This document shows, piece by piece, positions 11,159-19,185 of a DNA stretch of 64,000 nt; within the stretch, counting starts at the first letter, position 1, and every line of letters begins with the position of its first letter. The DNA comes from a virus (Duplodnaviria; Caudoviricetes): positions 1 through 64,000 of the IMG/VR virus record IMGVR_UViG_3300042396_000691, one strand, 5' to 3'. The notes under the pieces were generated by a model. That model did no database searches. It was not told the origin of the DNA and was given only the letters and a program-made list of their open reading frames with translations. The position numbers were made by a program, and so were the translations under genes.

Positions 11159-11791
11159 ATGACTTTTAGATATCAAAGTTTTATCAGCTTTATAGCTTAT
11201 GAAAACATAGAGCCTCTTGCACAATTAAAGTTAAAATATTCTGCTAACTACGAAGATAGTCCAATAATGGCAAACTATGAAAATAAAGTAGAATATTTTT
11301 ATGCGAGACAAATATATTCTGACAATGAAAATTTTGATATGGAAGAATATATTCTTTCTTTGCCAATTGTAAATATTGAAAACTCAAATGAATGCAACAA
11401 TATTATTCAAATATGTTTAAATAGAAAAATAGGTCAACTTGAAAACTATTTGAGAAACCAAGCATTCATGCAAGAAGTTTTTTCAGTTTTACCAACAAGC
11501 ACAACAACCAGTACAACAACTGTTACAAGTACAACTGTTACAACAACACCATGTCCAACAGGTGTACCAAGTAGAATATATTATATAAACGCAACAAATG
11601 TTTGTGCAATTTGTGTAGCAACAAATGAATTTGTATGCAGTCCATATGAAAATTACAATTATGTAAATTGTTTAAATTCAGCAAACAGTATCAATCAAGG
11701 AAACACAGATTGTACAACAACAACAACAACAAGTACAACCACTACAACACTAGCACCAACATCGACTACACCTATAGGGCCACAGGGTTAA
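11159..11791 (+). CDS. Thr-rich (mucin-like) repeat protein with Cys-rich module
   Basis: Two poly-Thr tracts flanking a Cys-containing segment (CPTG...CAIC...C...C...C). Confidence 0.7.
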   Translation: MTFRYQSFISFIAYENIEPLAQLKLKYSANYEDSPIMANYENKVEYFYARQIYSDNENFDMEEYILSLPIVNIENSNECNNIIQICLNRKIGQLENYLRNQAFMQEVFSVLPTSTTTSTTTVTSTTVTTTPCPTGVPSRIYYINATNVCAICVATNEFVCSPYENYNYVNCLNSANSINQGNTDCTTTTTTSTTTTTLAPTSTTPIGPQG

Positions 11792-12605: not shown

Positions 12606-13352
12606 ATGTTTAACGAAGATGATTTACATAAGTGGAAAAGCTCAAAACCATTTAATCATTTAGTAATAGACAATTTTTTAGAAAGCTCATTGGCTATGCA
12701 AATAGCTGATGAGTTTCCTTCTATTAATGATGACTTTTGGTTTTACTATAACAATGCTGTTGAAGTTAAAAAAGCCTGTGATATGTGGTGTAAGTTTCCA
12801 AAATCAATATATAAAACAATATTTGAATTAACCAGCAAAGAATTTGTAGACTCTTTATCTAATTTAGTTGGTAAACAGGTTTGGGCAGACTATGGGTTAA
12901 ATGGCGGTGGCATACACGCTATGGGCAATTCTGGAAAATTAAACCCACATTTAGACTACAACATACACCCAAAGCTTGGACTACAAAGAAAGATAAATTT
13001 AATAATATACTTAACAAAAGATTGGGATACATCTTGGGGTGGAGCTATAGAGTTATGGTCACACGATGAAGAAAACAATAAACCAAAACAGATAGATGTT
13101 AAAATAGATTGTGTTTTTAATAGGGCATTACTATTTGATACAACTCAAAACTCTTGGCATGGCATATCAGATCAGATCACATGTCCAATCGACAAATCAA
13201 GAAATTCAATAGCAATATACTATGTTTGTGAGCCAGAAATTGGCAGCGAAAATAGGAATAAAGCTTTGTTTGCCCCAACAGAGAACCAAAAGGGAGATAA
13301 GGCAGTTGAAGAACTTATAAGACAAAGACTTTTGGGTAAATACAAAATATAG
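12606..13352 (+). CDS. 2OG-Fe(II) oxygenase (prolyl-hydroxylase-like)
   Basis: HxD (HLD), RKINLIIYL, GGAIELW, distal His (SWHG) and RxS (RNS) 2OG-binding motif. Confidence 0.9.
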   Translation: MFNEDDLHKWKSSKPFNHLVIDNFLESSLAMQIADEFPSINDDFWFYYNNAVEVKKACDMWCKFPKSIYKTIFELTSKEFVDSLSNLVGKQVWADYGLNGGGIHAMGNSGKLNPHLDYNIHPKLGLQRKINLIIYLTKDWDTSWGGAIELWSHDEENNKPKQIDVKIDCVFNRALLFDTTQNSWHGISDQITCPIDKSRNSIAIYYVCEPEIGSENRNKALFAPTENQKGDKAVEELIRQRLLGKYKI

Positions 13353-13419: not shown

Positions 13420-13821
13420 ATGGAATCAAAAGCACCAATCGAAATCAATGGGGAAAAATATCTGCTGTTTGCAAGCGAAAATGTTAAAAGGCTTTTAAGA
13501 AAGAATAAGGTTGCAGCAGTAACTATTCTTGAAGAGTTCATTAATAAACCATTTACAAAGCTTGGAACATCTAATATTAAGAGAATTGCAGAAACAAACT
13601 TAAACATCTTGAACATTCAAGCAACAGAGTTTGAATCTCAAGAAGAAATCAAATGCTTTATCTTGCATTGTGTTGGTAACTATACGCAAATGTTGCCAAT
13701 ATATCCAAAGAAGTGGTCAGTAATGTTGGAATGTGGACATAAAGCAATATTTGATGAAACAGTTGATTATATCTGTAAAGATCATGTAGTCACATGTTTT
13801 AAGTGCAATAAAAATAATTAA
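13420..13821 (+). CDS. Hypothetical protein with C-terminal Zn-ribbon
   Basis: LECGH...CFKC, RBS AGGAGG. Confidence 0.55.
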   Translation: MESKAPIEINGEKYLLFASENVKRLLRKNKVAAVTILEEFINKPFTKLGTSNIKRIAETNLNILNIQATEFESQEEIKCFILHCVGNYTQMLPIYPKKWSVMLECGHKAIFDETVDYICKDHVVTCFKCNKNN

Positions 13822-13870
13822 TGCTTTTTAATCTGTAAGAAAAACGCATACATATTTCTTACAAGGAGGT

Positions 13871-14773
13871 TTGATGTTAAAGGTATATGATATGTTTTCG
13901 GGGATAGGTGGATTTGCTCTAGGATTTCAAAAGGAAGGCTTTGAAATAGCTGCTTTTGCAGAGTTAGATAAGTATCCTTCTGAAGTTTTGGCTAAGAATT
14001 TTCCAAATGTCCCCAACTATGGAGATGTAACAAAAGTAGAGTATGAAAAAGATCAATTCGATTTAATTGTTGGGGGTTTTCCCTGCACAGATATATCTAT
14101 AGCAAGTCAATCAAAGGAGGGCATTTATGGAAAAAGATCATTCTTGTGGAAAGAATTCTTCCGAGCAGTTAGAGATGTTCAACCAAAATACTGTGTCATT
14201 GAAAATGTCTTTATGCTGCTTGGAAGAGGGCTTGAAACGGTGCTACAAGACCTTGCCAGCATCGGGTACGATGCGACTTATACAACGCTCGATGCCCAAT
14301 ACTGTGGAACAGCCCAACGAAGGCGTAGAGTTTACATTTTGGGAGTCCGTGATGGAATCCCCGCCAATAGCGATATATTCGAGTTTGGCCCTCGTAGTAC
14401 TAGAACCTGTCAACAAAGCGTGGAACTTGTCAAAAAAAGCTTTGAATGGAATTTTAAAGAGAGCATGTGGTTCAAAGAAACCTTTGCCTACTTTACTCGC
14501 CAAAGAAGTGATCAATTTGATGAATGCGGAGTCTCGTCAACCTTAACAAAAAGAGATTATAAGTCTTTTACAGATTTAGTAGTCTCTGATGGTAATATAC
14601 GCAGAGTAACGCCTACAGAAAGGCTTCGCCTTATGGGTTTTCATGACCATTGGCATATCCAAGATGCTTCTAATACAGATAAGTATAAATACAATGGTAT
14701 GCATGTGCCTTCGGTTCAATATATAGCAAAATGTTTAAAGGAGTACGAAAGATGTTTGAATTTGCAAAAATAG
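13871..14773 (+). CDS. C5 DNA cytosine methyltransferase (large chain), atypical motif X
   Basis: Motif I FSGIGG, IV GGFPC, VI ENV, VIII QRRRR, IX RRVTPTERLRLMGF. Motif X reads YKYNGMHVP instead of the usual YKQxGN[SA]V. Confidence 0.92.
   Translation: MMLKVYDMFSGIGGFALGFQKEGFEIAAFAELDKYPSEVLAKNFPNVPNYGDVTKVEYEKDQFDLIVGGFPCTDISIASQSKEGIYGKRSFLWKEFFRAVRDVQPKYCVIENVFMLLGRGLETVLQDLASIGYDATYTTLDAQYCGTAQRRRRVYILGVRDGIPANSDIFEFGPRSTRTCQQSVELVKKSFEWNFKESMWFKETFAYFTRQRSDQFDECGVSSTLTKRDYKSFTDLVVSDGNIRRVTPTERLRLMGFHDHWHIQDASNTDKYKYNGMHVPSVQYIAKCLKEYERCLNLQK
14127..14546 (+). CDS. Nested out-of-frame gene, resembling the M.EcoHK31I beta subunit
   Basis: Own RBS AAAGGAGG (14113-14120) 6 nt before ATG. 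A 139-aa open frame in AT-rich DNA with motifs SLKMS, LPASGTM, SSLALVVLE and LSKKALNGILKRA..KKPLP. Confidence 0.75.
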   Translation: MEKDHSCGKNSSEQLEMFNQNTVSLKMSLCCLEEGLKRCYKTLPASGTMRLIQRSMPNTVEQPNEGVEFTFWESVMESPPIAIYSSLALVVLEPVNKAWNLSKKALNGILKRACGSKKPLPTLLAKEVINLMNAESRQP

Positions 14774-15384
14774 CAGAAAAGTTTGATGAGCACTTGTCTG
14801 GACAACTATATTGGCACAGCAATTTCGTTAATCATTTCTTGCCTGAGATTGCATCTGTTTTTATGGCAGAAGGAACAAATGTATATGATTTTGGTGCATC
14901 AACAGGTAATGTAGAGGTGGCTTTATCAAGTATGATTAAGTCAAGGGGCATAGATTTTATACCTGTGGAAAAATGTAAAGAGATGGCAGAAAGATATAAA
15001 GGCGAAAGCGAAGTGGTTGTTGATGATTTTTTAAATGTGTATATGGAAGAGTTTTCATTTGCCACATGTATTTTGTCTTTATGCTTTATCCATCCATCAA
15101 AAAGAGAAACATTTATTGATTCTTTAAAAAACAATTGTATGATTGGCGGTGCTTTTGTAGTTTTAGAGAAAATGAAATCTAAAGGAGGATATCTAGGCAC
15201 AGCACTAAATAGAGTTACATGGCGTAATAAGATTGAAAATGGTGAATCTTTAAAAATGGTAATCAATAAAGAGCTTTCGTTAAGTGGTGTGCAGTATCCT
15301 CTAAGTGAAAAAGAACTTGAAGGATTTGAGTTAATATGGGCGTATGGTGATTTTCGTGCTTATATTTGGTTAAAGGAGTTTTAA
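14752..15384 (+). CDS. CmoA-like class I SAM-dependent enzyme (carboxy-SAM synthase fold)
   Basis: FEF..AEKFDEH..., NVYDFGASTG, LSLCF, GGAFVVLEK and KIENG...NKELSLSGVQYP follow the CmoA layout. RBS AAGGAG precedes ATG 14752, which overlaps the end of the MTase gene. Confidence 0.75.
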   Translation: MFEFAKIAEKFDEHLSGQLYWHSNFVNHFLPEIASVFMAEGTNVYDFGASTGNVEVALSSMIKSRGIDFIPVEKCKEMAERYKGESEVVVDDFLNVYMEEFSFATCILSLCFIHPSKRETFIDSLKNNCMIGGAFVVLEKMKSKGGYLGTALNRVTWRNKIENGESLKMVINKELSLSGVQYPLSEKELEGFELIWAYGDFRAYIWLKEF

Positions 15385-15385
15385 A

Positions 15386-15631
15386 ATGGAAGAAGAATTG
15401 GATTACCATTGTTCTGAATGCGGTATTCAAATTTCAGAATGGATGCTTAGAGATGTCGATGGAGTCACAAATGACACATGTTTAAATTGTGCTATTAAAA
15501 CATCATTGATGTCATGTCCTGTGTGCGATAAAAATATAGGTATGACAAATGTAGATCGTGCAAATAGAATACTTGGCGATGGATGGGAAGAAATGTGCGA
15601 AGACTGTGCAAAAGCATTTATTGAAAAATAG
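15386..15631 (+). CDS. Small Cys-rich zinc-finger protein
   Basis: Four CxxC pairs. Confidence 0.6.
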   Translation: MEEELDYHCSECGIQISEWMLRDVDGVTNDTCLNCAIKTSLMSCPVCDKNIGMTNVDRANRILGDGWEEMCEDCAKAFIEK

Positions 15632-17680: not shown

Positions 17681-17911
17681 ATGGAAATTGGAAGTTTGGT
17701 TTTTGCTAGAAAGTTGAATGAAGCTTTTACTATTTATACCGATTCTGGTGATATAGAGGTTACCATTAAAGAAATAAATACATCTTCAAATCAAGTTAGA
17801 CTGCGTGTTAGAGCACCAAAAAACATTAAAATCATGCGAGATAATGCAGTTGATTTAAAACCAAAAGATATATTGTTCACACCAACAATTCCAAGATCGG
17901 AGAAAAGATGA
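17681..17911 (+). CDS. csrA: Carbon storage regulator CsrA/RsmA-like RNA-binding protein
   Basis: LVFARKLNEAFTI...DIEVTI....NQVRLRVRAPKNIKIMR matches the CsrA pattern. Confidence 0.85.
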   Translation: MEIGSLVFARKLNEAFTIYTDSGDIEVTIKEINTSSNQVRLRVRAPKNIKIMRDNAVDLKPKDILFTPTIPRSEKR

Positions 17912-19185
17912 ACAGAAGACATTTTATAAAACATACGGCTGGAATTTCCGCACTTTCTTTTGTGGATAAAGTTAAGGCACAAGAAGAAACACTTAAAAAG
18001 TCTGGAAAAAAGCTTATTGTATTGTGGATGGGGGGTGGTCCTAGCCATATGGACCTTTGGGATTTAAAGCAGGGTCAAGCAAATGGCGGTGAATTTAAAC
18101 AAATACTTACTTCAGCGAATGGAATTAGTATTAGTGAAGTTCTTCCAACAATCGCTTCTCAGTTTCACAATTTAGTTGCTGTTCGATCTCTTGTGACTAA
18201 CGAAGGAAGTCATGAGAGAGGAACCGTTTTAATGAATACTGGGCATCAACCAAGCGTTGTTGTGCAGTATCCATCCATTGGATCGGTAACATCTTCGCTT
18301 TTAACATCAAAAGAACTACCCTTACCAGGATTTATTGGTATTGGAAATTCAGCACAAAGAATTGGGCCAGGATTTTTAGGAACAAACCTTGCACCATTCA
18401 CCGTTCAAAATGCTGGAACTCCACCAGAGAATATTAAAGCACCAAAGGAAATAGATGATGAAGAAAGACTTAGACGAAGACAAAGACTGTTTTATACATT
18501 GGAAGACGATTTTTCGGAAAGAATTGCACCTCACATTAAAAATAGTGTGGCTAGAGAAGCTATGGGCAATCATGCTCAATCTCATTCTAATATCTATGGC
18601 AAAGCCTTTGATCTTACATTATCTCCGCTAAAAACAATCTTTGAACTAAAAGACGAAAATCCTAAAACGATTGAGTCTTATGGTGGTAGAGGAAATAACT
18701 TTGGAATGGGTTGTCTTCTTGCTAGAAAGTTAATTTCTAAGGGGGTTAGCTGTGTACAAATCGACCTGGGTGGATGGGATAATCATAGCAATATCTTTAC
18801 TACTATTAGGAATGGGAATGGGAATCGTCTTGATATGGGCATGGGATATCTGGTCAAGGACTTGGTAGATATGGGTATGTGGAAAGACACCGTAGTTATG
18901 TGGATGGGAGAGTTTGGTCGTACACCTAAGATTAATCAGAACGCTGGTCGTGATCATTGGGCTAGATGTTGGTCTGTGGTTCTTGGGGGTGGTACTATCA
19001 AAGGTGGACAGGTTTATGGTTCTACAACCTCTGATGGCATGGACATTAAAGACAAGCCTTGCAGCATTTCAGATGTTTATGCTACAGTGTACAAAGCTTT
19101 GGGTTTAGACCCAATGTTTCAAATTAGGGATAATTTAGGGCGACCAATACCTATATCAGAAGGAAAACCGTTAGATATATTTTGA
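17908..19185 (+). CDS. DUF1501 family protein (Tat-exported, alkaline phosphatase/sulfatase-like superfamily)
   Basis: Tat motif NRRHF, LWMGGGPSHMDLWD, YPSIGS, FGMGCLLARKL, GGWDNH, GEFGRTPKINQNAGRDHW. Confidence 0.92.
   Translation: MNRRHFIKHTAGISALSFVDKVKAQEETLKKSGKKLIVLWMGGGPSHMDLWDLKQGQANGGEFKQILTSANGISISEVLPTIASQFHNLVAVRSLVTNEGSHERGTVLMNTGHQPSVVVQYPSIGSVTSSLLTSKELPLPGFIGIGNSAQRIGPGFLGTNLAPFTVQNAGTPPENIKAPKEIDDEERLRRRQRLFYTLEDDFSERIAPHIKNSVAREAMGNHAQSHSNIYGKAFDLTLSPLKTIFELKDENPKTIESYGGRGNNFGMGCLLARKLISKGVSCVQIDLGGWDNHSNIFTTIRNGNGNRLDMGMGYLVKDLVDMGMWKDTVVMWMGEFGRTPKINQNAGRDHWARCWSVVLGGGTIKGGQVYGSTTSDGMDIKDKPCSISDVYATVYKALGLDPMFQIRDNLGRPIPISEGKPLDIF

Follow-up and report, generated by a model that had tools for sequence, protein, structure and literature searches.

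A CmoA-linked cytosine C5-transferase in an uncultured virus

The window analysed here, the first 64 kb of the 109,715-base uncultured virus record IMGVR_UViG_3300042396_000691 (about 73% complete by estimate), carries a gene for a C5-cytosine DNA transferase which overlaps a gene for a CmoA-like protein (Table 1). We consider it probable that the two genes form a module for the modification of phage DNA that is of the CmoA-CmoX type, comprising synthesis of carboxy-S-adenosylmethionine (carboxy-SAM or Cx-SAM) and formation of 5-carboxymethylcytosine (5cxmC), with no ligase step. A preliminary description of this DNA had proposed that a C5-transferase is coupled here to a CmoA-like synthase of an S-adenosylmethionine (SAM) analogue for non-methyl modification of cytosine; this central proposal is supported by a homologous system in Synechococcus phage S-B43 (PMC12783734) and by synteny.

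A system of this kind has already been described in the literature. In phage S-B43 a phage CmoA (SpCmoA) makes carboxy-SAM, the C5-methyltransferase homolog CmoX (SpCmoX) transfers carboxymethyl onto cytosine at GC sites to give 5cxmC, and CmoY (SpCmoY), an asparagine-synthetase-like ligase, adds glycine (PMC12783734; Yang et al., Nat Commun, Dec 2025). The crystal structure 8YF3 places Arg350 of CmoX on the carboxyl group, and the CmoA of E. coli itself is sufficient to feed SpCmoX in vivo (PMC12783734). The window locus resembles that of S-B43 in that a phage CmoA homolog adjoins a C5-methyltransferase homolog, the expected chemistry leading from SAM through Cx-SAM to 5cxmC; moreover, CmoX-type enzymes are often found partnered with the very CmoA subfamily of the window. 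Of the features of CmoX, genomic association with a phage CmoA is found at the window locus, whereas the two defining residue states are replaced: SPPC around the catalytic cysteine by GFPC, and Arg350 of motif X by Met277. The window transferase is 24% identical to SpCmoX and belongs to a different clade from the enzymes with Gly-Arg in motif X, and identity between the CmoA-like protein and SpCmoA is about 23%. The published census retained 5,615 sequences, all with SPPC and Arg350 (PMC12783734), and its filter would have excluded the window enzyme because it has neither.

In the proposed mechanism, the CmoA-like enzyme would convert host SAM and prephenate to carboxy-SAM. The overlapping and presumably co-translated transferase would flip its target cytosine, Cys72 would attack C6, and the carboxymethyl group would be moved to C5, yielding 5cxmC in the phage DNA, where its role is probably protection against host restriction. 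The carboxyl group would be left free and the base probably unextended, since no CmoY-type ligase was found: genes for CmoY, for the asparagine-synthase family and for ParB domains were not detected in the 109.7-kb record (its incompleteness leaves their absence unproven), nor was a CmoY-like ligase found in the flanks of any locus whose transferase, like that of the window, has Gly-Met in motif X.

Conservation of the gene pair

Synteny of the pair in other phages, which the preliminary description had put forward as a check, was surveyed from both sides in IMG/VR and was found in many loci. Among 376 relatives of the CmoA-like protein, 80 loci were kept, many of them near-copies (59 distinct CmoA sequences). 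The open reading frame (ORF) was present in 79 of the 80, and a C5-methyltransferase gene lay in the fetched flank of 71 of these 79. The partners in the 71 loci were 37 enzymes with SPPC and Gly-Arg (the CmoX type), 32 with GFPC and Gly-Met, one of a type with 'ERCSG' in motif X and one truncated enzyme. Where the partner was of the Gly-Met type, its gene stood upstream of that for CmoA in 26 loci and downstream in six. As to the eight loci without a methyltransferase gene, six have 173 nucleotides (nt) or less upstream and one has 1268 nt. The last, L072 (3216-4127), is the sole CmoA-like locus with full flanks that, over some 3.4 kb, contain no C5-methyltransferase gene; from stop to stop the open frame at this locus spans about 300 codons, more than is usual.

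On the methyltransferase side the 80 nearest loci were taken. Six of them (L108-L113) hold full-length relatives with 46-69% identity, all with Gly-Met and with a CmoA gene directly downstream. The remaining 74 share a GGFPCQDI catalytic half and have Gly-Asn in motif X (some of the ORFs being truncated), and beside none of these 74 was a CmoA gene found. Combining the 32 loci of the first survey with the six of the second, the Gly-Met enzyme has a CmoA gene directly beside it in 38 of 38 IMG/VR loci. A cellular survey drew on 185,579 prokaryote species, each represented by a single genome; among the 80 nearest relatives there were no Gly-Met enzymes and no adjacent CmoA genes.

The pairing exceeds chance. 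It is retained down to 21-24% identity on the CmoA side and 46% on the methyltransferase side while the flanking genes change.

The transferase and its motif X

The transferase matches PF00145 over profile positions 2-320 of 324 (E-value=2e-53; 182.3 bits, cut-off 22) and TIGR00675 (E-value=4.9e-48; 164.4 bits, cut-off 100.65). From general knowledge of the family, we take its motifs to be I (FSGIGGF), IV (GGFPC, with the catalytic Cys72), VI (ENV at residues 111-113), VIII (QRRRR at 149-153) and IX (RRVTPTERLRLMGF). All five had been called intact, as the translation bears out, and the Pro-Cys, the Glu-Asn-Val and the arginines of motif VIII are invariant in two alignments with relatives. Thr follows Pro-Cys in motif IV (GGFPCT), versus Gln in most enzymes; the change is confined to some members of the Gly-Met clade, others keeping Gln.

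Motif X reads YKYNGMHVP and, as the preliminary description had it, lacks the usual Gly-Asn of C5-methyltransferases, in place of which the window enzyme has Gly276-Met277. Gly276 does not vary in alignments that include seven or more relatives. Met277 stands in the Asn column: it shares alignment column 495 with Arg350 of S-B43 CmoX, the equivalent of Asn304 of M.HhaI. The Gly-Met pair is invariant, being found in 10 of 10 rows of one alignment and in each of the clade's 23 distinct members. A pairwise phmmer alignment set Asn275 on Asn304 of M.HhaI; this placement was rejected as unlikely because position 275 varies, close relatives having Cys there (YKYCGMHVP), and Gly-Met does not.

The same position of motif X is altered in the engineered enzymes M.MpeI N374K, M.MedI N377K and M.CviPI Y205K/R. 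These carboxymethyltransferases gain a cationic Lys or Arg, whereas the natural enzyme of the window has Met, and the likeness to M.MpeI N374K on which the original proposal had drawn does not hold in this respect. In comparison with the mutants M.HhaI Q82A/Y254S/N304A and M.MpeI Q136A/N374A, in which space was opened to admit bulky SAM analogues, the window enzyme departs at what, on our own reading of the motifs, are presumably two of the engineered positions, the Gln site with Pro-Cys-Thr and the Asn site with Gly-Met; the mutants, however, use the small residue Ala, and Thr and Met are not small.

The CmoA-like protein

The CmoA-like protein matches the TIGR00740 CmoA profile (E-value=1.1e-18; 67.8 bits) and PHROG 4752 (E-value=8.4e-32). 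Its best PDB matches, in both sequence and fold, are E. coli CmoA (4IWN and 4GEK; sequence E-value=1.6e-11) and Haemophilus influenzae YecO (1IM8). These three entries were the only PDB sequence matches below E 0.001, and one other appeared up to E 1 (E 0.77). An AlphaFold2 model (predicted local distance difference test, pLDDT, 88) has the CmoA fold including its lid helices, and its top six PDB folds are all CmoA or YecO, with template modelling (TM) scores of 0.82-0.84 over 219-226 columns, versus 0.74 or less for other methyltransferase families. The comparison with ordinary methyltransferases had been named beforehand as one that could overturn the assignment; CmoA is the better match by hidden Markov model, by PDB sequence and by predicted fold. 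With respect to E. coli, the place of the cmoB partner is taken by the DNA transferase (CmoB-like enzymes were not searched for).

The SAM contacts of E. coli CmoA, as listed in PMC3663124, are Tyr39, Asp62, Gly64, Ser66, Asp89, Asn90, Asp117, Asn132, Phe137 and Glu164. Asp62, Gly64, Ser66, Asp117, Phe137 and Glu164 are kept in the window protein and Glu stands for Asp89, while Tyr39 is changed to His, Asn90 to Lys and Asn132 to Ile. The His for Tyr39 is a feature of the window clade.

The sole side chain touching the carboxyl group in E. coli CmoA is Arg199, according to PMC3663124 and PMC4482062. The alignment by eye of this residue (QKRSML) with Glu in the window protein (NKELSL) was reproduced by phmmer and by MAFFT with 56 sequences, and the surrounding KELSLSG motif is almost invariant across the window's CmoA subfamily. 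Biochemically verified SpCmoA likewise has Lys-Glu aligned, with high posterior, to E. coli Lys198-Arg199, so that Arg199 is not a requirement in the phage enzymes. In addition, the KELSLSG subfamily is found beside Arg350-type CmoX in 37 loci, and 14 of these Gly-Arg loci contain CmoY-like ligases (phmmer E-values of 3e-27 to 5e-43 against SpCmoY); the subfamily would therefore serve two carboxyl-specific partners. On these grounds the further suggestion made from the Arg-to-Glu replacement, namely that the product is a SAM derivative other than carboxy-SAM, was not borne out.

Phylogeny

A quick, unrooted FastTree tree of 130 rows was computed, with long-branch warnings for other parts of the tree. 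Each motif X type occupies one side of a branch, with Shimodaira-Hasegawa-like supports of 92 for Gly-Met (23 rows), 97 for Gly-Asn (67 rows) and 99 for Gly-Arg (36 rows). The window transferase falls within the Gly-Met clade and is, on sequence grounds, a member of a separate phage-only GFPC/Gly-Met lineage distinct from the published CmoX.

The KELSLSG CmoA subfamily also forms one clade (support 100, 59 rows). The Gly-Met enzymes have partners from two CmoA lineages that are deeply separated, the KELSLSG clade and the clade containing SpCmoA; the CmoAs of L109-L113 are 24-34% identical to SpCmoA versus 21-24% to the window protein. Each CmoA lineage occurs in nature with each methyltransferase type, giving four pairings, and production of 5cxmC is proven for one of these; on the simplest reading, carboxy-SAM is the common cofactor.

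Further types of CmoA-linked methyltransferase were encountered. In Staphylococcus phage vB-SscS-F1 (L005, 3980-6498), a CmoA gene and a gene for a methyltransferase with GSPC and with Gly-Gly at the Arg350 site are separated by a CmoY homolog (35% identical to SpCmoY, E-value=2e-40). In a Staphylococcus phage SPbeta-like record (L006, 3980-5679) a CmoA gene adjoins that of a C5-methyltransferase with GSPC and Gly-Gly. These Gly-Gly enzymes look like a further non-arginine lineage linked to CmoA and, judging from F1, arginine at motif X is not obligatory across natural systems. At L110 (2938-5520) a Gly-Met methyltransferase and a CmoA are followed by a second C5-methyltransferase (GGVPC, motif X 'YERCSGIP'). 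At L049 (130-1795) a CmoA 65% identical to that of the window is paired only with a methyltransferase of the 'ERCSG' type, and at L109 (2974-5631) further methyltransferase ORFs come after the CmoA gene.

Alternative explanations

Several features weigh against carboxymethyl transfer. Those of the transferase would fit an ordinary SAM-dependent enzyme producing 5-methylcytosine, beside which the CmoA-like enzyme would have a separate job, either draining SAM against SAM-dependent defences or modifying host transfer RNA (tRNA). SAM depletion by CmoA is a possibility raised by the CmoX authors, who also found SpCmoX R350N to be inactive with both cofactors (PMC12783734). In the window enzyme the residue in place of the motif X Asn is Met, uncharged and not cationic, and no conserved basic substitute near motif X was identified in the alignments, which were made without coordinates for geometry. 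In a column comparison, candidates for a clade-specific basic substitute were Arg152, which lies in motif VIII, and several positions within the target-recognition domain; they were not adopted, the motif X columns of that large alignment being shifted. In the saturation mutagenesis of M.MpeI, cationic residues were best for CxSAM use. M.CviPI, which methylates efficiently with SAM, has Tyr205 in the corresponding position, and a residue other than Asn does not alone amount to non-methyl transfer. The other catalytic motifs of the window enzyme are all canonical. The best PDB fold for its AlphaFold2 model (mean pLDDT 67.6, moderate) is M.HhaI (TM 0.66), CmoX (8YF3) ranking 15th (TM 0.63). Finally, because the Gly-Met enzymes are one clade, the correlation of Met with CmoA would represent one event maintained and not many independent ones.

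Plain methylation is also suggested by Vibrio phages with Gly-Met enzymes and no CmoA. The methyltransferases of Vibrio phages S4-7, 1.052.A and 1.233.A are the closest named relatives of the window enzyme (49-52% identity) and have the same target-recognition region. The Gly-Met motif X was checked in S4-7 (L001, 4007-5047) and 1.052.A (L002, 4001-5068), both about 52% identical to the window enzyme, and a CmoA gene was absent from the whole records of these two phages (that of 1.233.A was not searched). A 208-amino-acid (aa) ORF overlapping the S4-7 methyltransferase gene was rejected as a CmoA, having no Pfam or NCBIfam match and an hhalign probability of 0.2%. Phages S4-7 and 1.052.A may draw on carboxy-SAM from the host, or their enzymes may be plain methylases; a host supply is possible because E. 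coli CmoA fed SpCmoX. Gamma-proteobacterial hosts such as Vibrio encode CmoA. The distribution of CmoB, as given in PMC4482062, is consistent with CmoA in such hosts.

We nevertheless think it unlikely that the window enzyme only methylates. The 38 of 38 IMG/VR Gly-Met loci with an adjacent CmoA gene include both gene orders and two CmoA lineages, the 74 Gly-Asn loci have no CmoA, and a free-standing SAM drain would have no need of a lasting tie to one methyltransferase clade. If methylation is nonetheless all that the enzyme does, the tight linkage to CmoA needs another explanation, such as SAM depletion.

The other objections concern the CmoA-like protein. Its score is under the TIGR00740 cut-off of 193.3 bits. 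That cut-off was rejected as a test of CmoA function: SpCmoA, a proven synthase, also fails it (115.6 bits), which suggests that it is tuned to bacterial CmoA. The window protein has no equivalents of Arg199, Lys200 and Arg203. After the Lys-Glu site, basic residues are found in SpCmoA (Lys at +1, Arg at +4) and in the Staphylococcus phage proteins (Arg at +4, and in F1 also Arg at +1), and the window subfamily has none. Helix alpha6 of the subfamily lacks the His-x-Asp common to the E. coli, SpCmoA and Staphylococcus phage proteins, and an almost invariant Arg of the subfamily's own occupies the column of E. coli Asn179. Together with the His for Tyr39, these differences would suit an enzyme making a SAM derivative other than carboxy-SAM, the group of which the Gly-Met transferase would put on cytosine; an uncharged group would fit a Met-lined pocket. 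This explanation appears improbable. Proven SpCmoA has the same Lys-Glu, the same CmoA clade stands beside the CmoX-type enzymes and CmoY-like ligases described above, which points to a carboxyl group, the Gly-Met enzymes also pair with SpCmoA-like CmoAs, and six of the SAM-binding residues are retained.

The invariant Gly-Met pocket, taken with the loss of Arg199 and the altered helix alpha6 in the CmoA subfamily, could also be read in either of two ways, both of little likelihood: that the system places a group which is neither methyl nor carboxymethyl on cytosine C5, or else that it recognizes Cx-SAM by non-electrostatic means unlike those of CmoX, CmoB and all the engineered carboxymethyltransferases. 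In either of those two cases, natural alkylation of cytosine C5 with a CmoA-derived cofactor would have arisen in at least four separate methyltransferase lineages (Gly-Arg, Gly-Met, Gly-Gly and 'ERCSG'), of which one is described. That the two genes adjoin by coincidence or are in decay, with no functional coupling, is very improbable: nothing specific speaks for it beyond the record being an uncultured, 73%-complete viral contig, and both frames are intact with ribosome-binding sites in a pair conserved in distant relatives despite changing flanks.

Novelty and significance

As judged from alignments and tree, the novelty here lies in a C5-transferase lineage confined to phages, in which an invariant Met replaces the Arg that binds the carboxylate and which is linked to a CmoA subfamily lacking Arg199. 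In the literature searched on CmoX, 5-carboxymethylcytosine and phage carboxymethyltransferases, the supplementary files of PMC12783734 aside, no description of CmoA-linked methyltransferases without the arginine was found. Should the Gly-Met clade use carboxy-SAM, the published census would miss whole lineages, including the Gly-Gly and 'ERCSG' enzymes beside CmoA, and it would not be the whole rule that Cx-SAM can be used only with the help of a cationic residue. The engineering of carboxymethyltransferases for methylation sequencing and footprinting depends on this rule. It bears also on the interpretation of phage genomes, in which such genes are labelled plain 'DNA methylase' or 'tRNA methyltransferase'.

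Organization of the locus

The description of the C5-methyltransferase gene as overlapping a CmoA-like gene with its own ribosome-binding site was correct in every detail; both reading frames are intact and each has such a site. Two candidate starts of the methyltransferase gene, TTG 13871 and ATG 13874, follow the AAGGAGG sequence. An alternative in-frame ATG at 14731 would lengthen the CmoA-like protein to 217 aa. The true start is most likely ATG 14752, because AAAGGAG lies 8 nt upstream and most listed homologs have 210-213 aa. With this start and the methyltransferase stop at 14773, the genes overlap by 22 nt.

Table 1. Features of the transferase and CmoA-like genes (positions in the window)
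Feature	Position	Strand	Basis or remark
Shine-Dalgarno-like AAGGAGG ahead of the methyltransferase gene	13863-13869	+	Sequence reading
C5-cytosine DNA transferase, GFPC/Gly-Met lineage (assigned by sequence)	13871-14773	+	300 aa from TTG 13871, 299 aa from ATG 13874
Codon of the catalytic Cys72, motif IV GGFPCTDI	14084-14086	+	Translation and alignment columns
Codons of motif X, YKYNGMHVP	14690-14716	+	Sequence
Codons of Gly276-Met277, motif X	14696-14701	+	Sequence and alignments
Shine-Dalgarno-like AAAGGAG of the CmoA-like gene, within the end of the methyltransferase gene	14737-14743	+	8 nt before ATG 14752
CmoA-like protein, 210 aa, KELSLSG subfamily, probable carboxy-SAM synthase	14752-15384	+	Profile, PDB sequence, predicted fold
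Lys-Glu codons aligned with E. coli CmoA Lys198-Arg199	15268-15273	+	phmmer against 4GEK; MAFFT of 56 sequences

Neighbouring genes

A gene on the plus strand for a 2-oxoglutarate-Fe(II) oxygenase (12606-13352; PF13640, E-value=4.8e-16) is situated two genes upstream of the methyltransferase gene. Also on the plus strand, an 81-aa, Cys-rich, zinc-ribbon-like ORF (15386-15631) begins 1 nt past the stop of the CmoA-like gene, with an AAGGAG of its own; the homolog of this ORF in L050, a related viral contig, lies about 2.5 kb from the pair. These two and a 133-aa ORF (13420-13821) were considered as a possible third gene of the module and rejected, because more distant relatives do not retain them next to the pair; for the same reason the oxygenase is probably unrelated to the modification.

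Two other plus-strand ORFs lie farther away. One, of 210 aa (11159-11791), matches no family and contains long stretches rich in Thr and Ser (TTTSTTTVTSTTVTTT, TTTTTTSTTTTT). The other (17908-19185) specifies a 425-aa DUF1501 protein (PF07394, E-value=2.7e-91), which may be a host-derived auxiliary protein since a 72%-identical copy is present in L050.

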